Source: a virus (taxonomy: Duplodnaviria; Heunggongvirae; Uroviricota; Caudoviricetes). From it: a stretch of 64,000 nt of DNA. Below the pieces are notes generated by a model. It saw nothing but the letters and a program-made list of their open reading frames with translations, was not told the origin of the DNA and made no database searches. This document shows positions 835-55,802 of this stretch, piece after piece (position 1 is the stretch's first letter; each line of letters begins with the position of its first letter). The stretch spans positions 1 to 64,000 of the IMG/VR virus record IMGVR_UViG_2562617057_000010, one strand, 5' to 3'. Made by a program: the position numbers and the translations under genes.

Positions 835-1725
835 TCAGGCTGCCAGATCATCGTTTCCGATGGAAGCATAATAAGCTTTTTCTGCTTCTGCCGGAGGAGT
901 ATGGCCCAGCCTTTCCAGCAATCGTCGATTGTTATACCAGTCCACCCACGTGAGTGTGGCCAGTTCCACTTCTGCACGGTTTTTCCAGCTCTTACGGTGT
1001 ATTACCTCCGCTTTGTAAAGACCATTGATGCTCTCCGCCATCGCGTTGTCATACGAGTCGCCTGTACTTCCTGTTGATGCCAGTAATCCGGCTTCCTTAA
1101 GCCGCTGTGTGTAGGCCAGCGATACATACTGAGAACCTTTATCACTGTGATGGACCGTGCCGGACGGTCGACGGGCCCATAACGCCTGCTCCAGTGCATC
1201 CAGCACGAATGTCGTTTCCATGGACGATGAGACCCGCCACCCCACGATGTATCCGGCAAACACATCAATGATGAACGCCACATAGACGAAGCCCTGCCAT
1301 GTGCTGACGTAAGTAAAATCAGCCACCCACAGCTGGTCAGGTCGTTCTGCCACGAACTGACGGTTTACGCGGTCGCCTGCGGCAACGGCTTTCCGGCTGA
1401 TGGTCGTACGGACCTTTTTACCCCGGAGAACACCGGCAAGTCCCATAACCGCCATGAGACGTGCCACAGTGCATCTGGCCACTCTGATGCCTTCCCGTAA
1501 CAACTGACGCCAGACTTTACGCACACCGTATACCTTGTGATTTTCATCGTATACGCGCTGTATCTCTTTCTTCAGCCAGTCATCGCGCTGCGCACGGGCA
1601 CTGCGTTTATCCGGATGATGTCGCTGTTGCTGACAGTGGTAATACGTTGACGGGGCAATATGCAGTTCGCTGCATAGCGGTCCGACCCCGTACTGCTCAC
1701 GCAGCTTATCCAGCAGTGGCATCAT
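835..1725 (-). CDS. IS3-family transposase OrfB (DDE integrase core)
   Basis: 296-aa ORF with rve-type DDE motifs ([22 protein letters not shown]); overlaps orfA by 4 bp. Confidence 0.9.
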
Positions 1726-2048
1726 TTTTTCCAGAGGCGGTCGAACTCCGCCTTCGCAAAATAAGCGGAAGCCTGGCGAAGGATATCGTTACTGCGGCGC
1801 AGTTCACGATTTTCACGCTCCAGCTCTTTCAGACGCTGACGTTCAGCGGTGGTGAGCCCTCCATCACCGCCCCCGGTATCCCGCTCATGCTGGCGAACCC
1901 AGACACGCAGAGTCTCCGGCGTACAGCCAATCTTTGGAGCAATGGAACAAATTGTCGCCCATTGTGAGTCATATTCGCCCTGACTTTCCAGAACCATACG
2001 GACTGCCCGTTGACGGACTTCGGGGGAAAAACGAGTATTTTTAGTCAT
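1722..2048 (-). CDS. IS3-family transposase OrfA (HTH, leucine zipper)
   Basis: 108-aa ORF, N-terminal HTH and C-terminal coiled coil ([13 protein letters not shown]); A-run at overlap with orfB consistent with -1 frameshift site. Confidence 0.9.
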
Positions 2049-3862: not shown

Positions 3863-5551
3863 TTACTGCTTAATCACGGTACTGTACTTCGCTTTCAGGT
3901 TGCCTGCCATTGATGCCACCGTGTCTATGCTGCCGCTGTTGGTGGGCTGTGACGACCCGTTGTTGGTATGAGTGTGTTGTGCGGTGAGCTGCGCCAGTTG
4001 CTGAACGGTGTCGCAAAGATCCAGCATGAGGTTAAGTGTGTTGATGGTATTGCTGCCAAACCAGACCTGCGGGGCGATGATCTGTTGCATCTGGCCAGCG
4101 ACGGATTTTTTAATCCGGCCAATCTTTTCTTCCAGCGTTTTCGCCACATTGTGGGTGGTGCTTTCTGTGCTGGTTTGCCACTGGTGAGTAACGTCGAGTT
4201 TAGCGCTGTCGGCGTGCTGTATCAGTTTCTTCGTGGCGGCTACGGCATAGTCACCGTCTGCGATGTGCTGTATGTGGCCGCTCATCAGCTTATGAGTGCC
4301 GAGCACCGTTATGGTGTTGTTGGCCTTTACGGTAATATTACGAGTGGTACTGGTGCGCGTTTCCGTTGTGTTCTGGATGATGCGGTCGGTGGATTTCTCA
4401 CGAATAACCTGATCGGTTTCACGCTGCCATGTGCCATCTGTATGCACACGCTGGAATACCTCTGCGCGTTGCTGTTGTAGTTGTTCGCCGGGCTTTATTC
4501 CCGGCAGACTCTGGCCGCTGGCGTGAGTGCCGGTGATGATGGGTTTATCCGGCCTGCCGTCAACGTGGGCCAGTGTAACTATGGTTCCTGGGGGCGGGTA
4601 CTGGAATATCCCGGATTCATTGCCGGCCATTGGCACAGGAACGGGGACGGCGTTATATACCGGTGTGTTCTTATCGGGGGTGCCGTTCTCGTCGAGCAAC
4701 TGCACATTGACGGCGTAGCGTGGGCGAAATTCATCATGCAAATCCCCCTGGGTTGTGTTTTCAGTTGGTGAGATCACGCGTCCCATGCGTGGAAGGTGGG
4801 TTTTGTTGCCTATCTCGGGGTAAAGGGTTTCGATCTGGCGTTGTACTGGCGACTGACGGCCATCACTCCAGCTAATGATCATGCTGTCGCCCTGTAGCTG
4901 TACCTGATTTATACGGTGATCGTTCATGACCACGCCGGGGCGCATCATGGGAATCGTCTGTATTGTCCAGCCATTTGCTCCGTGATCACCTCTGGTGATA
5001 TCGACCGGCAATCTGGCAGGGCGTTTTGCAAAACGGCAGTCAGCAAAGCTTCCGGCGTAGATGATGCCGTCAACCGACGGATACCAGACGTAATCCGGGA
5101 TACTGAATATGCGGCCAAGCATGGCCATCAGCTGATAACCGTTGCCATTGTGGGTTAGATGAGGGACCGGAGTGGTGGTGTAGCCTGCCTTCGGGAGTTG
5201 TATGCGTAAACCTGTATTGCCTTCAATGTGTCCTGCGACCTGTTTCAGCGTCGGATGCTGCATGGAGATGTTGAGCGGGTATTGCAGAATAGCAGCAGCT
5301 TCGCGCACCATCAGCTTGTGCAGCCCTCTGCCTGTACAACTGTCACTTTCCACATATCCCGAAAACCACTTTACAGGCTGATCGTTGTAACCGATGGACA
5401 GCTCTACGGGTTTGCCGCGTAGCGGGGGAGTATTGTCGGCGGCGTTAATGGTGATAAAGCCGGTTCCCGCGCCGTTGAGACGCAACATGATGTTTTCTTC
5501 CACGACAGGATAACGCCTGCCGTTAATGCAGAGATCACGAATTGGTTTCAT
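3863..5551 (-). CDS. Putative baseplate hub / central spike fusion (gpD-like N-term, gpV/VgrG-like C-term)
   Basis: 562 aa; N-terminal segment resembles the Mu-like gp44 hub in this window (GKPVELSIGY...GYVESDS vs [10 protein letters not shown]...GYIDS); C-terminal repetitive beta-rich region; last gene of the tail operon. Confidence 0.4.
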   Translation of the reverse strand: MKPIRDLCINGRRYPVVEENIMLRLNGAGTGFITINAADNTPPLRGKPVELSIGYNDQPVKWFSGYVESDSCTGRGLHKLMVREAAAILQYPLNISMQHPTLKQVAGHIEGNTGLRIQLPKAGYTTTPVPHLTHNGNGYQLMAMLGRIFSIPDYVWYPSVDGIIYAGSFADCRFAKRPARLPVDITRGDHGANGWTIQTIPMMRPGVVMNDHRINQVQLQGDSMIISWSDGRQSPVQRQIETLYPEIGNKTHLPRMGRVISPTENTTQGDLHDEFRPRYAVNVQLLDENGTPDKNTPVYNAVPVPVPMAGNESGIFQYPPPGTIVTLAHVDGRPDKPIITGTHASGQSLPGIKPGEQLQQQRAEVFQRVHTDGTWQRETDQVIREKSTDRIIQNTTETRTSTTRNITVKANNTITVLGTHKLMSGHIQHIADGDYAVAATKKLIQHADSAKLDVTHQWQTSTESTTHNVAKTLEEKIGRIKKSVAGQMQQIIAPQVWFGSNTINTLNLMLDLCDTVQQLAQLTAQHTHTNNGSSQPTNSGSIDTVASMAGNLKAKYSTVIKQ

Positions 5552-7472: not shown

Positions 7473-9479
7473 TTAAATACTCGCTACGTTATACCAGGTG
7501 CCATTAATCAGTTTTTGCAGCGGTCGGTAATACACACCGTTGACGTTATCCGCTGAGTTACGGCCGGTATCCGATATCGATATCCCTGACAGCCCGTGTC
7601 CCGAAGGTGCGCAAAATCTCCACGAAACGGTGTTACTGCCGGGGCTGTAATACATTTCATGACCATACCGCACATCCTGTACCCCCTCAGTTCGATGTTT
7701 ATAGCGGGCATCGAAGTTTCCGTAATTTAACGGAATTACCTGTCCGTTTACAGCGAATGTGATACTACCATCGGTATTTCTCTGGCTGTAGAAATGCCAG
7801 CCGGAATCATCACCAAGCTCTGCAACAACAGGCCTGGATGGATTACCCCACAAATAAAACGCTGCATTTTTCGTGGAGTTGTTGGCGCTGGATAACGTGA
7901 ATTTTTTAGCATTTCCGGCCTGAATATTCTTAAAAGCAATAGTCACACCATTCTGAAAACGGAATACTCGCTGACCATTTGCATAAACATCAAGCAGACC
8001 ATCGCCATTTTGTTTAAACCCGGTATCGTTATCTCCTAAAACGATTGAACTTCCACCTAACGCATTCGTCGTACCAATTCCAAGACAACCATTAATGACG
8101 GCATTAACCAGAATATTTAGTGTATCCCATTTGAGATTCATCAGGTCTTTAACCCGGCCGCCAGCGAGGCGGTGTCTCCATTTGAAATACTCATTGCCGT
8201 TGTCACCTGTTTCAAACCACATGTATGAATCAGTATCGCTGTCGGCATCATTTTTAAAACCAATCTTTGCCCAGTCAGTATTTCGAATCCAGGCAAGGGT
8301 TGAGTCGTTTTCAAAAGTAAGTCCACCGGACAAGGTATCGCCTGTCTTTTGGACTGCGTTACCAGCCTTGTTTACCGTTTCCTGTAAACCAACGTTCTGG
8401 ATAAACAGCGGTTTATCGGGAATATCTGCTCCGTTCTGATTTTTTTGCAGCGCTCCTGTGATGCGGATGTCGTCACCTGCGGCTACAGTGTCCTGCGCGG
8501 TGCCAACATTAAGGGTGGCGCTGTCGCCGAGGCCCATATGCTTTCTGGCATCAGACTGGGCCTGTTCACCTTTGTCAGCAATTTCTTTCAGGTTCCCGTT
8601 ACGGGTCAGGTATTCGCCATCAAGGCGGTCATTTAATGGTTTGCGGGTTTTTCGTATATCGGTGATCTCGCCACTGTCTGATATTGTGGCGATGGGTTCG
8701 ACATAATGGGCAAATCCTGAACTGTCGGTATAGTCGGCTGTTTTCTGACTCGTCAGGCTGAATATGGCTTTATTTTCCCCGGTCAGGGTACCGGTTAATG
8801 CCGCGTCAACATAAACAGTTTGTGAAATTCCGGTGGCGTATGTCAGTGTGCCTTGTTCATCCAGCTCCACACGTAATCCGCGCAGATAGGCAATACCCGG
8901 CGCGAAGGTCGCCTGCCCGGTAGCCTGAGCGGTGAGTTTAAAGGCGTTATTAAAGAACAGGCCAGGCCCGTAGATATCCAGCGCCGCTTTGCGGGTGGCC
9001 TCGTCCATGCCGTGAAGCCGTGCCGTAAAATCAATCTGCCAGGTGCTTACTGGCGTGGTGATGCCGGTTGCGGCGCTGGCTCCGGCGTATTCCATAATTT
9101 CAGAATAAATCAGGGTATTACCCTGTTTGCCGTCTGCGGTTTTTATTTTTTTCTGAGGGTGAAGATATACCACCATACAAAGTGTATTTGTGGTGCTGCT
9201 TACCAGACCCAGCCAGTTAAAAGTAAAATCACCCGTGGACTCCGGCAGGGTAACGGAGTAGGCGACGGTGTTCTCATTTACCATTCCGTTGCGATCAACG
9301 TTCTGGCGGTGAACTATCTGTGCATCGGGGGGCAATGGTTCGTTTTCAGACGGCGTGTCGGCAATGTTCAGATCCGGGATATTTGCAAATACAAACTGAT
9401 CAATGATGATACGGTTGCCGCCTGCGGCTTCCTGCGCTTTCAGGCGCTCAAATGCTGAAGTGATAGCGCTCTGGGTCAT
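7473..9479 (-). CDS. Tail fibre protein
   Basis: 668 aa; C-terminal [11 protein letters not shown]; about 90-aa block shared with the Mu-like S protein; contains a gix-like site. Confidence 0.85.
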
Positions 9480-31260: not shown

Positions 31261-31547
31261 TTAACGATATTCTGACCGAAGACCGTCGTCTGGTCATCCT
31301 GCGTTCCCTGATGGACTGCAATAACGAAGCAAACGAATCCATCCTTCAGGACTGTCTGGATGCATACGGACACAACGTTTCCCGCGATGTGGTTCGCGGC
31401 CAGATTGACTGGCTGGCAGAGCAGCAACTGGTCACCGTGGAAAACCTGCGCGGCTTTTATGTCGTAACGCTGACCTCCCGTGGTCAGGATGTGGCAGAAG
31501 GTCGTGCCCGCGTTGCCGGTGTCAAGCGTCCGCGTCCCCGTGCATGA
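31257..31547 (+). CDS. Late protein, unknown function
   Basis: 96 aa upstream of terminase genes. Confidence 0.45.
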   Translation: MINDILTEDRRLVILRSLMDCNNEANESILQDCLDAYGHNVSRDVVRGQIDWLAEQQLVTVENLRGFYVVTLTSRGQDVAEGRARVAGVKRPRPRA

Positions 31548-32134
31548 CAGGAGGCGTGATGGACAGGAAAACACGGGGCCGGGCTTCAAAAGTGGATTTA
31601 CTGCCGGAAAACGTACGTAAAACGCTGCATGAAATGCTGCGTGACAAAGCGATTCCACAGGCCCGCATTCTGGAAGAAATTAACGCACTGATTGAAGACG
31701 CTGGCCTGCCGGATGAGATGAAACTCTCCCGTTCCGGTCTGAACCGTTACGCGACGAACGTCGAGCAGGTAGGCCATAACCTGCGACAGATGCGTGAAAT
31801 GACGTCAGCACTGACCGCAGAACTTGGCGACAGGCCAATGGGAGAAACCACAAAGCTGATTCTGGAAATGGCCCGCAGCCAGCTTTTTAAGGCCATGATG
31901 CGGCAAATCGAAAACCCGGAATCTGACGTGGATATTGACCTGCTGAAAAATGCCATGCTGGCGGCACAGCGTCTGGAATCCACGGCAATGTCGAGCCACC
32001 GGCGCGAGAAAGAAATCCGCCAGGCATTCGCAGAAGAAGCAGCAAACGCCGTCAGTGAAGAACTGCGCGGGCAGGATGGCATCAGCGAAGAACTGGAGCA
32101 GCGCATCCGTGATGTACTGCTGGGGAAAGCGTAG
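31544..32134 (+). CDS. Putative terminase small subunit / DNA-binding protein
   Basis: 196 aa, position immediately before large terminase. Confidence 0.5.
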   Translation: MTGGVMDRKTRGRASKVDLLPENVRKTLHEMLRDKAIPQARILEEINALIEDAGLPDEMKLSRSGLNRYATNVEQVGHNLRQMREMTSALTAELGDRPMGETTKLILEMARSQLFKAMMRQIENPESDVDIDLLKNAMLAAQRLESTAMSSHRREKEIRQAFAEEAANAVSEELRGQDGISEELEQRIRDVLLGKA

Positions 32135-32408
32135 GCGTTACGTTATGAAAAATAATTACAAAGCACAGCTAATCAGTGCCCATAAAAAAGCCTTCAGGAT
32201 TGCAACATTGTCTGATGTCCGGTTGATACACCAGATTCGGGATGTGCTTGTTCAGGCCATGGCTTCAGGCAATTCATGGCATACCACCATAAAGCAACTA
32301 AGGATGTTGTCCTGAGGAGATGAAAATGGCGGATGCCCGGCGACGGCAGGTCAGGTGATCGGTTGTTCCTGGATTCGCCGGTAACGTTTTACACCGGATT
32401 TTTCACCC

Positions 32409-34064
32409 ATGAGCACCAGAGAAAGCAAACTTAAAGCCCTTCATGCGCCCCGCAAAATCGACCTGCGTAGGGAAGCCGAACTGCTCGGCGTGAATATCGT
32501 TACCGATATCGGGGAAGCACAGCCCCGCAATGAACCGGTTTTTCTGGGCTATCAGCGCCGCTGGTTTGAGGATGAAAGCCAGATTTGCATCGCTGAAAAA
32601 TCCCGTCGTACCGGTCTGACATGGGCCGAAGCGGGCCGCAATGTCATGACGGCAGCAAAGCCGCGCCGCCGTGGCGGTCGCAACGTCTTTTATGTGGGTT
32701 CCCGTCAGGAAATGGCGCTGGAATACATCGCCGCCTGTGCCCTGTTTGCCCGCGCCTTTAACCAGCTGGCAAAGGCTGACGTATGGGAGCAGACCTTCTG
32801 GGACAGTGACAAAAAAGAAGAAATCCTCACTTATATGATCCGTTTCCCTAACAGCGGATTTAAGGTGCAGGCGCTGTCAAGCCGTCCGTCTAACCTGCGT
32901 GGTTTGCAGGGGGACGTGGTGATTGATGAGGCGGCATTTCATGAAGCCCTGGACGAACTCCTGAAAGCGGCCTTTGCTCTCATCATGTGGGGTGCCCGCG
33001 TGCGGATCATATCGACACATAACGGCGTCGATAACCTGTTTAACCAGTACATTCAGGATGCGCGTGAGGGGCGCAAGGATTACAGCGTTCACCGCATCAC
33101 GCTGGATGATGCCATCGCTGACGGACTGTACCGGCGTATCTGTTACGTCACGAATCAGCCGTGGTCGCCGGAAGCGGAAAAAGCCTGGCGTGATGGCCTG
33201 TACCGGAATGCGCCGAATAAAGAGAGTGCCGACGAGGAATACGGCTGTATTCCAAAAAAATCCGGGGGCGCTTATCTGTCACGCGTGCTGATTGAAGCCG
33301 CCATGACGCCAGCGCGGGATATCCCGGTTCTGCGTTTTGAAGCCCCGGACGATTTTGAATCGCTGACACCACAAATGCGCCACGGCATCGTTCAGGACTG
33401 GTGTGAACAGGAGCTGCTCCCGTTGCTCGATGCGCTGTCGCCGCTCAATAAACACGTACTGGGCGAAGACTTTGCACGCCGTGGCGACCTGACGGTGTTT
33501 GTGCCGCTTGCCATCACTCCTGACTTACGCAAACGCGAATGTTTCCGCGTGGAGCTGCGTAATGTGACCTATGACCAGCAGCGACAAATCCTTTTATTCA
33601 TTCTGTCCCGTTTGCCCCGTTTTACCGGCGCTGCATTTGATGCCACCGGTAACGGCGGTTATCTGGCAGAAGCCGCCCGTCTGATTTATGGCCCGGAGAT
33701 GATCGACTGCATCAGTCTGACCGCCGCCTGGTATCAGGAGTGGATGCCGAAACTGAAAGGCGAGTTTGAAGCGCAGAACATCACGATTGCCCGGCATCAG
33801 ACCACACTCGATGACCTGCTTCATATCAAGGTGGACAAAGGTATTCCGCAGATTGATAAGGGGCGCACAAAAGATGAAAGCGGTAAAGGCCGACGACATG
33901 GTGACTTTGCCGTGGCGCTCTGTATGGCTGTCAGGGCGTCTTATATGAATGGTTTTGTTATCGACGAGGACAGCATACAGGCGCTGCCACCACGCCACCG
34001 TGGTGATGATGTTGATAACGATGATTTTGATGATTATCACCAGTTTGAACGAGGGGGCTGGTAA
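32409..34064 (+). CDS. Terminase large subunit
   Basis: 551 aa, ATPase plus nuclease architecture, Mu gp28 position. Confidence 0.8.
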   Translation: MSTRESKLKALHAPRKIDLRREAELLGVNIVTDIGEAQPRNEPVFLGYQRRWFEDESQICIAEKSRRTGLTWAEAGRNVMTAAKPRRRGGRNVFYVGSRQEMALEYIAACALFARAFNQLAKADVWEQTFWDSDKKEEILTYMIRFPNSGFKVQALSSRPSNLRGLQGDVVIDEAAFHEALDELLKAAFALIMWGARVRIISTHNGVDNLFNQYIQDAREGRKDYSVHRITLDDAIADGLYRRICYVTNQPWSPEAEKAWRDGLYRNAPNKESADEEYGCIPKKSGGAYLSRVLIEAAMTPARDIPVLRFEAPDDFESLTPQMRHGIVQDWCEQELLPLLDALSPLNKHVLGEDFARRGDLTVFVPLAITPDLRKRECFRVELRNVTYDQQRQILLFILSRLPRFTGAAFDATGNGGYLAEAARLIYGPEMIDCISLTAAWYQEWMPKLKGEFEAQNITIARHQTTLDDLLHIKVDKGIPQIDKGRTKDESGKGRRHGDFAVALCMAVRASYMNGFVIDEDSIQALPPRHRGDDVDNDDFDDYHQFERGGW

Positions 34065-35602
34065 TGGGCCGTATTCTGGATATTTCCGGGCAGCCGTTTG
34101 ATTTTGACGATGAAATGCAGACCCGCAGCGATGAGCTGGCAATGGTCATGAAGCGCACGCAGGAGCATCCTTCCAGTGGTGTGACGCCGAACCGGGCCGC
34201 GCAGATGCTGCGTGATGCCGAACGCGGTGATCTGACAGCACAGGCTGACCTGGCCTTTGATATGGAAGAAAAGGACACCCACCTTTTTTCCGAACTGAGC
34301 AAGCGCCGCCTTGCCATTCAGGCGCTGGAATGGCGCATCGCTCCGGCACGTGATGCCAGCGCACAGGAGAAAAAAGACGCCGACATGCTGAATGAATATC
34401 TGCATGATGCGGCGTGGTTTGAAGATGCCCTGTTTGATGCCGGTGATGCCATTCTCAAGGGTTATTCCATGCAGGAGATTGAATGGGGCTGGCTGGGCAA
34501 AATGCGCGTGCCGGTGGCGCTGCATCATCGCGATCCGGCGCTGTTCTGCGCGAACCCCGATAATCTGAACGAATTACGTCTGCGTGATACGTCTTATCAC
34601 GGGCTGGAGCTGCAACCGTTCGGCTGGTTTATGCACCGGGCCAAATCCCGCACCGGGTATGTTGGCACCAATGGCCTTGTGCGCACGCTTATCTGGCCTT
34701 TTATTTTTAAAAACTATTCCGTGCGTGATTTTGCAGAGTTTCTGGAAATTTACGGACTCCCCATGCGCGTCGGTAAATATCCGACCGGCTCCACAAACCG
34801 TGAGAAAGCCACGCTGATGCAGGCCGTGATGGATATCGGGCGACGTGCCGGTGGCATTATTCCGATGGGGATGACGCTGGATTTTCAGAGCGCCGCAGAT
34901 GGTCAGTCAGACCCCTTTATGGCGATGATTGGCTGGGCAGAAAAAGCGATTTCAAAAGCCATTCTGGGCGGCACCCTGACCACAGAGGCTGGCGATAAAG
35001 GTGCACGGTCGCTGGGTGAAGTGCATGATGAGGTTCGCCGGGAAATCCGTAACGCGGATGTGGGCCAGCTTGCCCGCAGTATTAACCGTGACCTGATTTA
35101 TCCCCTGCTGGCACTGAACAGTGACAGCACCATTGATATTAACCGCCTGCCGGGCATTGTATTTGATACCAGTGAAGCGGGTGATATTACGGCACTGTCT
35201 GACGCCATTCCGAAACTGGCGGCGGGAATGCGTATTCCGGTCTCCTGGATACAGGAAAAACTTCATATTCCACAGCCGGTCGGTGATGAAGCCGTGTTTA
35301 CTGCTCAACCGGTTGTCCCGGATAACGGTCCGCAGAAAGAGGCCGCATTATCCGCTGAAGATATCCCGCAGGAGGATGATATCGACCGGATGGGCGTCTC
35401 ACCGGAAGACTGGCAGCGTTCGGTTGATCCCCTGCTGAAACCCGTCATTTTTTCTGTGCTGAAAGATGGCCCGGAAGCCGCCATGAACAAAGCCGCTTCA
35501 TTATATCCGCAGATGGATGATGCAGAACTTATCGACATGCTGACCCGTGCCATTTTTGTTGCCGATATATGGGGGCGTCTGGATGCCGCAGCAGACCATT
35601 GA
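34064..35602 (+). CDS. Portal protein (Mu H-like)
   Basis: 512 aa following terminase. Confidence 0.8.
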   Translation: MGRILDISGQPFDFDDEMQTRSDELAMVMKRTQEHPSSGVTPNRAAQMLRDAERGDLTAQADLAFDMEEKDTHLFSELSKRRLAIQALEWRIAPARDASAQEKKDADMLNEYLHDAAWFEDALFDAGDAILKGYSMQEIEWGWLGKMRVPVALHHRDPALFCANPDNLNELRLRDTSYHGLELQPFGWFMHRAKSRTGYVGTNGLVRTLIWPFIFKNYSVRDFAEFLEIYGLPMRVGKYPTGSTNREKATLMQAVMDIGRRAGGIIPMGMTLDFQSAADGQSDPFMAMIGWAEKAISKAILGGTLTTEAGDKGARSLGEVHDEVRREIRNADVGQLARSINRDLIYPLLALNSDSTIDINRLPGIVFDTSEAGDITALSDAIPKLAAGMRIPVSWIQEKLHIPQPVGDEAVFTAQPVVPDNGPQKEAALSAEDIPQEDDIDRMGVSPEDWQRSVDPLLKPVIFSVLKDGPEAAMNKAASLYPQMDDAELIDMLTRAIFVADIWGRLDAAADH

Positions 35603-36902
35603 TCTGGCGTATGCCGCACGCCTCCCGCCAAAGGAGGCTGTCGCGTATTTCCGCGCCAAAGGCTACAACATCACCTGGAACTGGTACGAACAACTGGCAG
35701 ACGCGCACGCCCGCGCCTTTACCGTTGCCAAAGCCACCCGGATGGATGTCCTGACCACAATCCGTGGGGAAGTGGAGCGGGCTGTCAGTGAAGGCATCAC
35801 CCGTGAAGAATTTACCCGCACACTGGCCCCCCGGCTGCAAAAACTCGGATGGTGGGGAAAACAAATCATCGTGGATGCAGAGGGAAACGCGAAGGTAATC
35901 GAGCTGGGCAGTCCGCGTCGTCTGGCAACCATTTATAACGTCAATACCCGTACAGCGTACGGGGCGGGACGTTATGCACAGATGATGAATACCGCAGATT
36001 TGTATCCGTACTGGCAGTACGTTGCCGTTATGGATGGCAGAACACGCCCGGAACATGCGCGGCTGCACAATATGGTTTTCCGGTATGACGACATTTTCTG
36101 GCAGACGCATTACCCGCCCAATGGCTGGAACTGCCGCTGTCGCGTCCGGGCGCTGTCTGCGGCCCGCATGAAAGAACTGGGGCTACAGGTCAGTTATGGG
36201 GCGTCATTCATGAATACCCGCGAAGTGGATGCCGGTACGGATGAAAGCACCGGAGAGATTTTCCGCACATCGTCAACCACGTTTGACAACGGTCGGGTAA
36301 AAATGACGCCGGATGTGGGCTGGTCATATAACCCCGGTTCGGCGGCATTTGGTACGGATCAGGCACTGATTCGAAAACTGGTGGAAGTTCGTGACGCGCA
36401 GCTGCGTGAGCAGGTTGTTCAGACGCTGAATAACAGCCGGGAGCGTCAGCTTGCTTTTTCCCTCTGGCTTAAACGTCTGGCGAAATCACGCCGGGCCGGA
36501 CATGAGGTCCGTGCGCTGGGGTTTATGACGGAAGCCGTGGCGGAGGCCGTATATCAGCGCACCGGGAATATGCCAGCCCGTCTGCTTGTGATGAACGGAA
36601 AAAGTCTGGCGACCACTGCTGATGCCGCCCTGAAACTGGAGGATTTACAGCGTCTGCCGTCACTGATGGCAAAACCACAGGCGGTATTGTGGGACAGGGA
36701 GAACCACCAGTTGCTGTATGTTGTGGCAACCCGCGACGGCACTGCAAAAGTTGTGGTCAGAACATCGCAGGCTGTCAGCAAACAGAATGACCGGGCGGAT
36801 GTGCTGGTCAGTATCAGCCGCGTATCTGCACAGTCGCTTGAAGCCGCGATTGCTGACGGGATGATTGACATACTGGAGGGGCATGTGGAGGTGAATAAGT
36901 GA
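35583..36902 (+). CDS. Head morphogenesis protein (Mu F-like)
   Basis: about 440 aa after portal. Confidence 0.75.
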   Translation: MPQQTIDLAYAARLPPKEAVAYFRAKGYNITWNWYEQLADAHARAFTVAKATRMDVLTTIRGEVERAVSEGITREEFTRTLAPRLQKLGWWGKQIIVDAEGNAKVIELGSPRRLATIYNVNTRTAYGAGRYAQMMNTADLYPYWQYVAVMDGRTRPEHARLHNMVFRYDDIFWQTHYPPNGWNCRCRVRALSAARMKELGLQVSYGASFMNTREVDAGTDESTGEIFRTSSTTFDNGRVKMTPDVGWSYNPGSAAFGTDQALIRKLVEVRDAQLREQVVQTLNNSRERQLAFSLWLKRLAKSRRAGHEVRALGFMTEAVAEAVYQRTGNMPARLLVMNGKSLATTADAALKLEDLQRLPSLMAKPQAVLWDRENHQLLYVVATRDGTAKVVVRTSQAVSKQNDRADVLVSISRVSAQSLEAAIADGMIDILEGHVEVNK

Positions 36903-50429: not shown

Positions 50430-50962
50430 CACCCTGGCAGACGGCCTTTCTGCAATTACTGCCGTCAGGGCTTGCCTGGAATAAAAGCCCCGACAGCAAA
50501 TTATCTGCGCTGGCGCAGGCCATCAGCGACGTGATTGCCACTGCGGCGGATGATGCGCGGCAAATACTGCGGGAGCGTTTCCCGTCCACATCCCGCTGGT
50601 ATCTGGGTGAGTGGGAATCACTTCTGGGGTTGCCGGACTGTACAAGCGAAAACGGCACCCTGTCCGAACGCCAGCGGGCTGCCGCGAATAAAATGCGTAT
50701 GACCGGCAATCTGAGTCGGCGCTTTTATGAATGGCTGGCTGCGCAGTACGGTTTTACCGTCAGGCTGACGGATTCCACAGAAGGCCAGTGGGTTACGCAG
50801 GTCAATATTTACGGTATTAAAAATTATCGCAACGCAACGGTGCTGGATAATGTTCTGACGCCGTTACGTGTTTATGAATCGGGTGCGCTGGAATGTTTAC
50901 TGGAGAAATATAAACCCGCGCATCAGATTTATAAATTTGTTTACCATGACGGAGATAACTAA
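50420..50962 (+). CDS. Baseplate protein (gpI/gp48-like)
   Basis: 180 aa. Confidence 0.7.
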   Translation: MAVTPWQTAFLQLLPSGLAWNKSPDSKLSALAQAISDVIATAADDARQILRERFPSTSRWYLGEWESLLGLPDCTSENGTLSERQRAAANKMRMTGNLSRRFYEWLAAQYGFTVRLTDSTEGQWVTQVNIYGIKNYRNATVLDNVLTPLRVYESGALECLLEKYKPAHQIYKFVYHDGDN

Positions 50963-52473
50963 TGTTTTATATTGATAACGACAGCGGCGTAACCGTCATG
51001 CCGCCCGTATCCGCCCAGCGTAGTGCTATCGTTCGCTGGTTTTCAGAAGGTGACGGGAATAATGTTATCACATGGCCCGGCATGGACTGGTTTAATATTG
51101 TGCAGGCGGAGTTATTAAACACGCTGGAAGAAGCCGGTATTCAACCGGATAAAACAAAATTAAACCAGCTTGCACTGTCCATTAAAGCCATTATGAGCAA
51201 TAACGCGCTGCTGATAAAAAATAACCTCAGCGAAATTAAAACTGCCGGGGCATCAGCACAGCGTACAGCACGTGAAAATCTGGATATCTATGATGCCAGC
51301 CTGAACAAAAAAGGACTCGTTCAGCTAACCAGTGCCACTGACAGCCCCAGTGAAACGCTGGCAGCCACCGCAAAAGCGGTGAAAATTGCGATGGATAATG
51401 CCAGTGCCCGTCTGGCAAAAGACCGGAACGGAGCAGATATTCCCAATAAGCCGCTGTTTATCCAAAACGTCGGTTTACAGGAAACGGTAAACCGGGCCAG
51501 GAACGCTGTGCAAAAAAATGGCGATACCTTGTCCGGCGGACTTACTTTTGAAAACAACTCAATCCTTGCCTGGATTCGGAATACTGACTGGGCAAAGATT
51601 GGTTTTAAAAATGATGCCGACAGCGATACTGATTCCTACATGTGGTTTGAAACAGGCGACAACGGCAATGAATATTTCAAATGGAGACACCGCATCATTG
51701 GCACCCGGCCTAAAGACCTGATGAATCTTAAATGGAATGCTTTGTCTGTTCTTGTTAAAGCCCTTTTCAGCAGTGAAGTGAAAATATCGACAGTCAATGC
51801 ACTGAGGATATTTAATTCATCTTTTGGTGCCATTTTTCGCCGTTCTGAAGAATGCCTGCATATCATCCCTACACGAGAGAATGAGGGAGAAAATGGTAAT
51901 ATAGGGCCATTACGCCCCTTTACGCTTAATCTCAGAACTGGCCGGATAAGCATGGGGCATGGTCTGGTTGTTACAGGAGATATATTTGCAAACCGTTTTG
52001 CAATTAACAGTAGTACCGGCATGTGGATTCATATGCGTGACCAGAATGTTATTCTGGGCCGTAATGCGGTATCCAACGATGGTGCGCAGGCATTGCTTCG
52101 CCAGGACCATACCGACCGTAAATTCGTAATTGGTGGGCTGGGGAATAAGCAATTTGGCATCTACATGATTAATAACTCAAGGACAGCCAATGGCACCGAT
52201 GGTCAGGCGTACATGGATAATAACGGTAACTGGCTTTGTGGTGCGCAAGTTATTCCCGGCAACTATGGCAATTTTGATTCCAGATATGTGAAAGATGTTC
52301 GACTTGGTACTCGTGTTGTTCAGGTCATGCAAAGAGGCGTGATGTATGAAAAATCAGGTCATGTAATAACAGGGCTTGGCATTATTGGCTCTGTTGATGG
52401 TGATGACCCAGCAGTATTCAGACCAATACAAAAATACATCAATGGCACATGGTATAACGTCGCACAGGTATAA
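50962..52473 (+). CDS. S: Tail fibre protein S (constant plus variable part)
   Basis: 503 aa, C-terminal [11 protein letters not shown]; contains gix-like site at 51458-51483. Confidence 0.85.
   Translation: MFYIDNDSGVTVMPPVSAQRSAIVRWFSEGDGNNVITWPGMDWFNIVQAELLNTLEEAGIQPDKTKLNQLALSIKAIMSNNALLIKNNLSEIKTAGASAQRTARENLDIYDASLNKKGLVQLTSATDSPSETLAATAKAVKIAMDNASARLAKDRNGADIPNKPLFIQNVGLQETVNRARNAVQKNGDTLSGGLTFENNSILAWIRNTDWAKIGFKNDADSDTDSYMWFETGDNGNEYFKWRHRIIGTRPKDLMNLKWNALSVLVKALFSSEVKISTVNALRIFNSSFGAIFRRSEECLHIIPTRENEGENGNIGPLRPFTLNLRTGRISMGHGLVVTGDIFANRFAINSSTGMWIHMRDQNVILGRNAVSNDGAQALLRQDHTDRKFVIGGLGNKQFGIYMINNSRTANGTDGQAYMDNNGNWLCGAQVIPGNYGNFDSRYVKDVRLGTRVVQVMQRGVMYEKSGHVITGLGIIGSVDGDDPAVFRPIQKYINGTWYNVAQV
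51458..51483. other. gix/hix-type invertase crossover site
   Basis: TTATCCAAAACGTCGGTTTACAGGAA, one mismatch from the recalled Mu gix sequence. Confidence 0.65.
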
Positions 52474-52476
52474 ATC

Positions 52477-53004
52477 ATGCAGCATTTAAAAAACATCAGG
52501 TCAGGAAACCCAAAGATAAAAGAGCAATACCAATTAACAAAGAATTTTGACGTAATCTGGTTGTGGACAGAAGACGGAAAAAACTGGTATGAGGAAGTGA
52601 AGAACTTTCAGCCAGATACAATAAAGATTGTTTACGATGAAAATAATATTATTGTCGCCATCACTAAAGATGCCTCCACGCTTAATCCTGAAGGCTTTAG
52701 CGTCGTTGAGGTCCCCGATATAACAGCAAATCGTCGTGCCGATGATTCCGGGAAGTGGATGTTTAAGGACGGAGCTGTGGTTAAGCGGATTTATACGGCA
52801 GACGAACAGCAGCAACAGGCCGAATCACAAAAGGCCGCATTGCTTTCCGAAGCTGAATCAGTCATCCAGCCGCTGGAGCGCTCTGTCAGGCTGAATATGG
52901 CGACGGATGAGGAACGCGCACGACTGGAGTCATGGGAACACTATAGTGTTCTGGTCAGCCGTGTGGATACGGCAAATCCTGAATGGCCACAAAAGCCTGA
53001 ATAA
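52477..53004 (+). CDS. U: Tail fibre assembly protein U
   Basis: 175 aa. Confidence 0.85.
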
Positions 53005-53032
53005 AAATTAAGGCCCGATAGCGGGCCTTGTT

Positions 53033-53566
53033 TCATTCTGGTTGTTCTGGAAACGTTACTGGCAGGCTGGAGGTGTCTGTGGATTCGACCTTCTGCGCAT
53101 AGAGCATCCACTCGGTTAATTTTTGTTTATTCTCGTCGGAAATGATGCCCAGCCGTAGCTGTGAGTCCCATAGCTGAGTTTTATCCCTGACAAGTTGCAA
53201 CAGACTTTGCTTTTCATTTTCCGCCTGTTGCCTCTGTTCTTCCCCGGTATAAGTTCGCTTTATCACTACGCCATCTTTGAACATCCATTTACCCGAAATA
53301 TCAGCCCGGCGATTTGCTGTAATATCAGGTAATTCAATGACGCTTGCGCCTTCCGGATTAATTGCTGAAACATCCTTTTCAATACAAATAATAACGCCGT
53401 TGTGGTCATAGACCATTTTCAACGTATCAGGCTGAAAGTTCTTTTGCTCCTCATACCAGTTTTTCCCATCCTCTGTATAAAGCCATTTGATGTTAAATTG
53501 CTTTGTTAGCTGGTATTGCTCTTTTGTTTCAGGATTACCAGCAGAAATGTTTTTTAAGTGCATCAT
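53033..53566 (-). CDS. Alternative tail fibre assembly protein U' (inverted copy)
   Basis: 177 aa on opposite strand, convergent with U, same fold family. Confidence 0.8.
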   Translation of the reverse strand: MMHLKNISAGNPETKEQYQLTKQFNIKWLYTEDGKNWYEEQKNFQPDTLKMVYDHNGVIICIEKDVSAINPEGASVIELPDITANRRADISGKWMFKDGVVIKRTYTGEEQRQQAENEKQSLLQLVRDKTQLWDSQLRLGIISDENKQKLTEWMLYAQKVESTDTSSLPVTFPEQPE

Positions 53567-53568
53567 CG

Positions 53569-54081
53569 TTAAATACTCCCCGCGTTATACCACGTTCCAT
53601 TAATGCAATACTGAACTGGCCTTGCCTGAGTTGTATCAATTAGTGCATCTCTGTTTGAGTTAACGGAACCGGTAACAACATAACCTGACCTGTCAGACCA
53701 GCCGGGACCATTCCATGTCTGAACAGATGACAGACCACCAAGGCGAATACCTGTAATAAACCTTGAGTTACATTCTGCCTGCGTATATGCGCCAACATCT
53801 CTCGCTGATGGCTTGCGTGTTGTGGTGTAAAACTCTGACCAGCCAGCCTCAAATCCATAACCATCACGCGCTGAACGATAAAAAATACCGCCGTTCTTAT
53901 AATTCACACGGAACTGTACAGCAGGGCAACTCCCCGTATTCATATTGAAGTGGAGTATTAATGCTGTTGCGCCTTTGATATCTGCATCATAAACACCGCT
54001 AATCAATGCAATATAGAAAACGACGATCGAATCAATTGAATCGATCGGTAATACAGATCGATTATGTCCTGATAACCACAC
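53569..54081 (-). pseudogene. Alternative tail fibre variable segment Sv' (no constant region, no adjacent gix or gin)
   Basis: ORF with tail-fibre C-terminus YCINGTWYNAGSI; 5' part overlaps the GATC cluster of the mom regulatory region, so coding extent is uncertain. Confidence 0.5.
54020..54062 (+). promoter_or_regulatory. mom upstream regulatory region with clustered Dam (GATC) sites
   Basis: GATC at 54025, 54043, 54056 within 35 bp, about 75 bp upstream of com. Confidence 0.6.
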
Positions 54082-54133
54082 TCACCCCATGATGTTTTTT
54101 AAGATAGTGGCGAATTGATGCAAAGGAGGTGAG

Positions 54134-54322
54134 ATGAAATCAATTCGCTGTAAGAACTGCAACAAACTGTTATTTAAGGCGGGTTCCTTTGATCACATTG
54201 AAATCAGGTGTCCGCGTTGCAAACGTCACATCATAATGCTGAATGCCTGCGAGCATCCCACGGAGAAACATTGTGGGAAAAGAGAAGAAATCACGCATTC
54301 TGACGAAACCGTGCGTTATTGA
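54134..54322 (+). CDS. com: Com zinc-finger translational activator
   Basis: 62 aa, CKNC...CPRC zinc finger, overlaps mom start. Confidence 0.85.
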
Positions 54323-54968
54323 GTATGAAGGCCAGATTGTTGGCTATGGTTCAAAGGAGCTGCGCGTTGAAACCATATCCTGCTGGCTGGCCCGCACAAT
54401 CATTCAGACAAAACATTACTCCCGCCGTTTTGTGAATAACTCTTACCTTCACCTGGGAGTATTCAGCGGACGTGAGCTGGTTGGCGTTCTCCAGTGGGGA
54501 TATGCCCTTAACCCCAACTCAGGTCGTCGTGTCGTGCTTGAAACGGATAACCGGGGTTATATGGAGCTGAACCGCATGTGGCTACACGACGACATGCCCC
54601 GCAACTCTGAATCACGGGCCATCAGTTATGCGCTGAAAACCATCAGATTACTGTATCCATCAGTGGAATGGGTACAGTCCTTTGCAGACGAACGCTGCGG
54701 ACGTGCTGGCGTTGTGTATCAGGCGTCAAATTTTGATTTTATTGGCGGCCATGAAAGCACGTTCTACGAGCTGGATGGCGAGTGGTATCACGAGATAACG
54801 ATGAACGCGATTAAGCGCGGTGGACAACGAGGCGTGTATTTACGGGCTAATAAAGAGCGTGCCGTGGTGCATAAATTTAATCAGTATCGCTACATCAGGT
54901 TCCTGAACAAGCGAGCAAAGAAGCGGCTAAATACTAAGCTATTCAGGATTCAGCCATATCCGAAATGA
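54243..54968 (+). CDS. mom: Mom DNA-modification protein
   Basis: ORF overlapping com 3' end, last gene before the right end; true start probably internal. Confidence 0.75.
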
Positions 54969-54983
54969 TCCCATTTAATGAAT

Positions 54984-55014
54984 AAAAAAACAGCGGTTAA
55001 TGCCGCTGTTTTAT
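54984..55014. terminator. Hairpin terminator after mom
   Basis: A-run, CAGCGG-TTAAT-GCCGCTG, T-run. Confidence 0.65.
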
Positions 55015-55089
55015 CTTGAATAACTTCCATATGCGCGCTTCTGGCTTATCTTGAATGATTTCCATATCTATCTTGAATAATTTTCCGCG
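55011..55089. repeat. Right-end transposase-binding repeats (3x TTATCTTGAAT)
   Basis: Copies at 55011-55020, 55046-55055, 55068-55077; reverse complement of the left-end motif, closely packed. Confidence 0.6.
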
Positions 55090-55100
55090 CTTTACTTTCG

Positions 55101-55802
55101 TTATACCGCCCGTAATGCGCGCAGACGGGCGGCTATTTTGTTTCGTATGGCGCGAACACCTGCTTTGGGAGTGGTGCTGTGCGCACGGGCCATCCACTCA
55201 TCGGCGCTACGTAGTTTCGCCACGTCGTAAATGGCGGCCGGGGTTGTCGGTTTGCCATCGCTGTCCCGTAACAGGTTAAGACCGGCGAATTTGTACCATC
55301 TGGCAACTATCTCTTCGTGCAGTGTCCAGTCTTTTTCGATATGGCTCATCACGCGGCTGAAATAGGGCTCGACGGAAAGGCCTTTATCAAACTGAATCTG
55401 TGCCCACTGCATGACCTCATCGGCGACGAACGTTGGCAAATCACGGTCAAAGCGTGGTGGCATGGGTTGATTCTGTCCGATGGCGATATCGGCCCATTCC
55501 AGAGCTTTGTCCATTTCGCCGGTATCAAACAGCCAGACGATGCACCAGGTAAACGGGATGTATTTGTACTCCTCGCCGCTTTGCAGCCACGCCTCAATCG
55601 TCGGCATCCAGCGCGGCAGCAGGGATTCACGCTTGAATGCCACACGATCGGCGTTGGTGGCGCAACTGCTCACAGCCCTGCAGTCGATTTCCAGTTGCGC
55701 CAGTTGCAGATGAAGACTGTCGCGTACGGTCAGTGCCTCGCGGTGTTCCATTGCCTGCTGCGCGGCCAGTCTGGCTCTGAACTTTTGCGCCGGAGTCTGC
55801 AT
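55101..55802 (-). CDS. M: Terminase small (endonuclease) subunit, P2 gpM-like
   Basis: 233 aa; stop lies 7-12 bp from the Mu-like right end. Confidence 0.7.
   Translation of the reverse strand: MQTPAQKFRARLAAQQAMEHREALTVRDSLHLQLAQLEIDCRAVSSCATNADRVAFKRESLLPRWMPTIEAWLQSGEEYKYIPFTWCIVWLFDTGEMDKALEWADIAIGQNQPMPPRFDRDLPTFVADEVMQWAQIQFDKGLSVEPYFSRVMSHIEKDWTLHEEIVARWYKFAGLNLLRDSDGKPTTPAAIYDVAKLRSADEWMARAHSTTPKAGVRAIRNKIAARLRALRAV

Follow-up and report, generated by a model that had tools for sequence, protein, structure and literature searches.

The question raised by this locus is whether a Mu-like prophage that carries the cassette of an invertible host-range segment (the G segment) is still able to switch its tail fibres and, if it is not, how this ability was lost. 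The initial annotation had noticed a crossover site (gix) in the tail-fibre gene S, followed by an inverted cassette, but neither a gene for the invertase (gin) nor a right-hand gix, and had proposed that the orientation of the segment is now fixed. Our analysis of the window (the whole stretch of 64,000 nucleotides) points to the same conclusion and to its cause: the G-segment switch of this Mu-like prophage has very probably been disabled by a single deletion of ~1.13 kb.

The segment belongs to a Mu-like transposable prophage that occupies positions 18727-55093 of the window, with the G segment region on the plus strand, and that originates from a draft-level assembly of E. coli (GCA_000167915.2, contig AAKB02000001.1). 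Its late genes share ~95% DNA identity with those of Mu, SfMu and D108 over ~21 kb. As in other Mu-like phages, the set and the order of these genes are of the Mu type, ending with S-U-(G)-com-mom, and Pfam matches were obtained for Mu Gp45, Gp46, Gp48, Com and Mom. Furthermore, the prophage encodes a transposase of 724 aa that harbors the Mu-transpos_C and HTH_Tnp_Mu_1 domains of Mu-type DDE transposases. The remaining ORFs are Mu-sized and densely packed, and the rest of the prophage, outside the G segment, looks intact. Neither the ends of the element nor its first ~1.9 kb, which contain the repressor/ner region and the beginning of the transposase gene, are of the Mu type. Megablast found no match to Mu for the first ~1.9 kb, and TG...CA ends with the MuA-binding sites of Mu L/R are lacking. 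The ends of this element are TATGAC...GCGCTTT (TATGACTAGG on the left, CCGCGCTTT on the right), with ATTCAAGATA motifs in repeats. The insertions are nevertheless those of a transposable phage: 5-bp target duplications are found (GCTTT/ACTTT for the copy in the window) and insertion sites are varied, with six different left flanks seen.

The right end (55020-55093) terminates with ...CCGCGCTTT at 55093, where homology with a second copy found in IMG/VR (see below) stops, and is directly followed by the ACTTT copy of the target duplication (55094-55098). On this side of the prophage, com (54134-54322, plus strand, Pfam Zn_ribbon_Com) and mom (54243-54968, plus strand, Pfam Mom) are both intact ORFs. 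The element terminates 125 bp after the end of mom; therefore, no space is left for an invertase gene that would have been relocated past mom.

The left half of the G segment is complete. S (50962-52473, plus strand) is an intact gene encoding a tail fibre of 503 aa with Pfam Phage_fiber_2 and Gp34_trimer domains. It consists of a constant part, Sc, that extends up to the centre of the gix site (51470/51471) and of a variable part, Sv, beyond it. The near-perfect gix reported in S by the initial annotation is confirmed: this site, gixL (51458-51483, plus strand), reads TTATCCAAAACGTCGGTTTACAGGAA, i.e. TTATCCAAAACG-TC-GGTTTACAGGAA, and is the only gix of the element. In the Mu record, gixL and gixR, read directly, are both TTATCCAAAACCTCGGTTTACAGGAA. 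The site of the window differs from them by a single mismatch, C12>G, located beside the central TC and leading to a replacement of Leu by Val in S, and no match was obtained in 100 shuffles of the window. S is followed by U (52477-53004, plus strand), an intact gene encoding a tail-fibre assembly chaperone of 175 aa (Pfam Caudo_TAP) with 94% identity to U of Mu, and then by a terminator-like, bidirectional hairpin (53009-53030) that separates U from U'. S, U and U' are collinear with those of Mu in its G(+) arrangement. The S protein shows 92% amino acid identity with S of PhiR68_1 and 78.6% with S of Mu. Its receptor-binding end is divergent from that of Mu, with 18 of the 50 residues at positions 451-500 being identical; therefore, the host range fixed here need not be the one of Mu G(+).

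The right half of the segment was described as an inverted U' and Sv' cassette. The order S, U, inverted U' and S'v holds, but S'v is not complete. The alternative chaperone gene U' (53033-53566, minus strand) is an intact ORF of 177 codons whose product is 96.6% identical to U' of Mu. By contrast, the alternative fibre tip is reduced to an S'v remnant (53569-54006, minus strand) that retains only the C-terminal ~145 of 332 codons. This truncation was mapped by alignment of the protein with S' of the prophages of E. coli W and RMDEC465 and by DNA alignments. The homology of the protein begins at ...SGVYDADIKGATALILHF, and S'v is cut in the middle of a domain. An ORF of 170 aa can be read at 53569-54081, its first ~27 codons being antisense of the sequence upstream of mom. 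According to these alignments, this 'tail fibre' ORF (53569-54081, 145-170 aa) is a pseudogene fragment. No promoter-like site (sigma-70-like) was found on the minus strand upstream of U' or of the S'v fragment, and U', which can no longer be placed behind Sc, is presumed to be silent.

As noticed previously, S'v adjoins the GATC-rich region of mom: its homology ends at ~54004-54009 and the first of three GATC sites lies at 54025. These three sites of the upstream regulatory region of mom (54025-54059) are retained and their surroundings are near-identical to positions 4460-4500 of Mu L001. Between S'v and mom, positions 54010-54039 (plus strand) read AAT ATA GAA AAC GAC GAT CGA ATC AAT TGA and match the 3' end of Mu gin, i.e. 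its last nine codons (N-I-E-N-D-D-R-I-N) and its stop codon. The overlap between this gin remnant and the first GATC of the mom control region is precisely the one seen in Mu. It bears directly on the proposal that the lineage never had gin and that the inverted U' and S'v are relics of a different origin. Many P2-like fibre genes do carry a single relic gix without invertase, but the last codons and the stop of gin occupy here their usual place with respect to the GATC sites of mom, S'v is cut mid-domain and gin is present at this place in every other close relative. Such an ancestral architecture is therefore vanishingly unlikely, and the loss of a gin gene formerly present is retained.

Apart from this remnant, the absence of an invertase gene is borne out by our searches. 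When the whole window was searched by tblastn with Mu Gin as the query, at E values up to 100, no Gin-family coding sequence other than the C-terminal remnant was detected; the only signal was weak (53914-54036, E = 0.05) and reflects the last nine codons of gin. The lack of a second inverted gix is confirmed as well. A scan of both strands of the 64 kb, tolerating up to 8 mismatches over the 24 non-central positions, found none in or near the segment. At this tolerance, at which shuffled sequences give ~1-2 chance hits per window, only two sites were obtained, gixL and a relic at 8379-8404. Moreover, a search for inverted repeats revealed nothing beyond the coding homologies of U with U' and of S with S'. 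Two intact Mu-like loci of IMG/VR (L009 and L010) do carry two inverted gix sites and Gin.

The segment thus lacks each of the four features examined that define a functional invertible segment. It has neither two inverted crossover sites (gix, cix or pix) nor an adjacent gene for a serine invertase (Gin, Cin, Pin or Hin). It does not have two complete sets of fibre tip and chaperone, Sv, U and U' being intact and S'v being reduced to ~145 of its 332 codons. The fourth feature is the cis enhancer. A Fis-dependent recombinational enhancer was reportedly located within the 5' part of Mu gin by Kahmann et al. in 1985; given this position, which is taken from the literature, and the deletion of the 5' 95% of gin, the enhancer was probably lost along with the gene. 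Yet, the organization described above clearly points to descent from a functional invertible segment.

The initial annotation had left one escape route, an invertase supplied in trans and acting at a different site. Only one further gix-like site exists in the 64 kb, and it does not support this route. This relic (8379-8404, minus strand; TTATCCAGAACG-TT-GGTTTACAGGAA) is located 43 kb away from gixL, outside the G segment and in inverted orientation relative to gixL. It lies in a gene encoding an H-like tail fibre of 668 aa that belongs to a neighbouring HP1/P2-like prophage, and is embedded in a 346-bp stretch of 88% identity. Its central dinucleotide is TT, whereas that of gixL is TC. In reactions catalysed by Gin or Hin, sites with different central dinucleotides cannot be religated after one rotation of 180 degrees, and productive inversion is thereby blocked. 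One could imagine that a Pin- or Gin-type invertase encoded elsewhere joins gixL to this relic and swaps the fibre tips by a 43-kb inversion, the two sites being inverted and located within homologous stretches of fibre genes, and invertases being able to act across prophages, as PinQ does when it inverts a segment of another prophage, e14 (PMC12529663). But the cores are different, neither an invertase nor an enhancer is found within the 64 kb, and an inversion of 43 kb would split both prophages. A switch working in trans is thus very unlikely. We give equally little credit to the idea that gixL at 51458, the relic at 8379 and an invertase encoded elsewhere form a 43-kb invertible unit exchanging the receptor-binding tips of two nested prophages.

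The cause of the locked state appears when the locus is compared, as the initial annotation had suggested, with the G-gin regions of Mu and D108. The Mu-type relatives, which display 87-93% DNA identity with the window over the G region and ~95% over the late genes, keep the 5' half of S'v, gixR and gin; the ~1.13 kb with these sequences is missing here, most probably as a result of one deletion. The junction (54003-54012) was defined by comparison with Mu, D108, PhiR68_1 and the prophage of E. coli W. By BLAST, positions 50900-54004 of the window correspond to positions 31396-34502 of Mu (AF083977) and positions 53981-55020 to positions 35613-36653. The break is found at the same place in comparisons with PhiR68_1 and with the Mu-like prophage of E. 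coli W. Hence, the 5' ~187 codons of S'v, gixR, the promoter of gin and 184 of the 193 codons of gin have been lost. Homology extends to ~54004-54009 on the left side of the junction and resumes at ~54008-54011 on its right side, the deletion ending ~14 bp before the first GATC. The breakpoint is ambiguous over ~10 bp since the sequences beside the junction diverge from every intact relative available, and no intact parent closer than ~94-96% identity was found among the relatives searched.

Serine invertases occasionally use pseudo-sites, and Gin itself might thus have made the deletion, by site-specific recombination between gixR and such a pseudo-site. Nevertheless, both breakpoints are located hundreds of bases away from gixR, no gix-like sequence (within 8 mismatches out of 24) is found at the junction, and the flanks carry short, imperfect direct homology instead. 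An origin of this type is very improbable. In Mu, a direct repeat of 7 bp, ACCCCGC, is present near both breakpoints. Since the junction has no gix-like sequence and only short imperfect homology, illegitimate recombination (microhomology or slippage), and not the action of Gin, is the most likely origin of the deletion.

The same junction exists in a second prophage. The 24-mer spanning it occurs once in IMG/VR, in IMGVR_UViG_2850808358_000012, an E. coli prophage. Over 10.1 kb, this contig shares 99.4% identity with the window, with 61 differences. More than half of them (33) cluster in the 3' end of U and in U', a pattern suggestive of a conversion patch, and not a single one is found from position 53803 to the right end, i.e. 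over the last 1.29 kb. The second copy is inserted in an E. coli locus related to Rhs/DcrB with a perfect target duplication (AAGGA/AAGGA), whereas the copy of the window is flanked by a prophage.

This second copy has a bearing on the possibility of an assembly artefact, in which ~1.1 kb would have been collapsed or skipped and the real prophage would harbor gixR and gin. The source assembly is a draft, and assemblers are known to have difficulties with invertible segments. However, the junction lies in unique sequence, outside the gix repeats, and is found again, without any difference over the last 1.29 kb, in an independent contig from another E. coli and at another site. An artefact is therefore extremely unlikely. 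The identical junction at two different insertion sites also suggests that the element remained mobile without gin, and at least one transposition or infection event most likely took place once the deletion had occurred. The presence of the deletion at two sites could, in principle, also stem from recombination between prophages instead of transposition of an element already deleted.

Outside these two prophages, the deletion was not encountered. Of 5,426 complete E. coli genomes, 25 cover the query extending from S'v to mom: none has the junction and all of them contain a further ~1.1 kb with a recombinase annotation. Likewise, a recombinase gene is found beside com in all 42 complete E. coli genomes that cover com-mom. 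The 24-mer of the junction is absent from the GTDB species representatives and from the JGI metagenomes, and a search of IMG/VR for the pattern of the right end retrieved only the contig carrying the second copy. Exact matches of the S and Mom proteins were limited to the source genome. No published description of the gin deletion in this prophage was found in the literature searched.

These data fit the following scenario. A single deletion, from the middle of S'v to the last codons of gin, has removed gixR, gin and half of S'v. The segment is thus locked in a G(+)-type arrangement, the partner site and the invertase having been removed. Late transcription proceeding from Sc would read Sv and U, leading to one type of fibre and to one host range. 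U' would be an intact but silent passenger. S'v is a fragment, and com and mom have been kept with their Dam/GATC control region. Since there is no second site and S'v is truncated, inversion is not expected to yield a G(-) fibre, even if an invertase were provided in trans. Judging from its sequence, the segment is a degenerate version of the Mu G/Gin system, resulting from the ordinary decay of a textbook switch. A gin-less Mu-like phage locked in G(+) might conceivably be a viable lineage that circulates without host-range switching.

In terms of annotation, this segment should not be labelled as invertible. More generally, the host-range switch of Mu can apparently be lost by one small deletion that does not halt the movement of the element, since the same deletion is found at two insertion sites. 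This provides a small data point on when a phase-variable host range is dispensable. Beyond annotation, the significance is slight and no long-standing question is opened.

Comparison with known systems helps to place this case. The G segment of Mu, as well as those of D108, PhiR68_1, SfMu and the E. coli W prophage, has the order Sc-gixL-Sv-U-U'-S'v-(gin)-com-mom, which is shared up to the deletion by the element described here. The C segment of P1 and P7 (Cin) and the P segment of e14 (Pin) are made of homologous Sv/U/U'/S'v modules (89% DNA identity) and are switches of the same type; unlike the present segment, they still possess the invertase as well as two crossover sites. In SfMu, switching was apparently lost by another route, a change of 1 bp in one inverted repeat beside the core (PMC4406740). 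Fibre genes of the P2 H type and decayed e14-like segments likewise carry a lone gix-like site and no functional invertase. In our survey of IMG/VR, many P2-like loci harbor one relic site without invertase and several harbor fragments of an invertase; in E. coli RMDEC465, all that is left of the invertase is a pseudogene of 122 bp. In contrast with these relics, U' and part of S'v persist here, and so little time has passed since the event that it can be mapped to a single deletion.

The closest parallel comes from the laboratory. Mu phages with a fixed G segment, including gin mutants and non-defective G-beta deletions such as Mu 445-5, as well as Mu pAp1, were reportedly described by Chow, Kahmann and Kamp in 1977 and in related studies. 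Laboratory Mu devoid of gin, with or without loss of a part of G, is viable, has one orientation and displays a single host range. The lock is the same in the element described here, and a fixed G segment is therefore of a known kind. What is new is a natural example, carried by prophages of two E. coli strains, that can be viewed as the counterpart in nature of the laboratory fixed-G mutants of Mu.

The HP1/P2-like prophage of the window is interrupted by the entire 36.4-kb Mu-like element (18727-55093; flanks 18154-18726 and 55094-55802), which is inserted between gpM, the terminase small-subunit gene, and the head-completion gene, with a target duplication of GCTTT/ACTTT. This prophage is unbroken at the insertion point in six complete E. 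coli genomes. The insertion has probably crippled the late operon of the outer prophage. An IS3-family insertion sequence (835-2048, minus strand), made up of an HTH_Tnp_1 ORF and an rve integrase-core ORF, lies close to the left-hand boundary of the outer prophage region.

The termini of the Mu-like element (18727-18900 and 54990-55093) are not of the Mu type: the left end starts with TATGACTAGG, the right end finishes with CCGCGCTTT, and the motif ATTCAAGATA is found in three copies at either end. The transposase is 724 aa long, and megablast of the first ~1.9 kb of the element against phage records returned no match. This left end recurs in five IMG/VR contigs (L088-L092), and the flanking sequence differs in every one of them. 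The element seems to join Mu late genes to a transposition module of a distinct kind.

A 170-aa ORF (53569-54081, minus strand) crosses the deletion junction that locks the G segment: its first ~27 codons derive from antisense mom-upstream/gin-3' sequence and are fused to the C-terminal domain of S'v. Gene callers' version of this ORF is a 145-aa tail-fibre-like protein, and no promoter-like site was found upstream of the 170-aa ORF. The window and its twin contig in IMG/VR (L008), which has the same deletion junction, show 61 differences, 33 of which are packed into ~630 bp (52878-53504) covering the 3' end of U, the intergenic hairpin and U'. This cluster suggests a gene-conversion patch whose donor would be another fibre-assembly gene.

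The neighbouring prophage carries a relic gix-like site with a TT core (8379-8404, minus strand) inside its H-like tail-fibre gene (ORF 7473-9479). This site is 43 kb from gixL and in the opposite orientation, and is accompanied by neither an invertase nor a second site. It also has a G at the position matching the C12>G substitution of gixL (51469), which directly adjoins the crossover dinucleotide and changes a Leu to a Val in S. In SfMu, a 1-bp change in the inverted repeat beside the core was described, with no host-range switching observed (PMC4406740). The nearest relative of the S'v remnant (96%) is the S'v of an e14-like prophage from E. coli RMDEC465 (L005; NZ_CM177019.1, 2471650-2478354). 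There, the S/U/U'/S' segment is complete and the invertase is only a 122-bp frameshifted pseudogene. This is a further example of a naturally locked segment.
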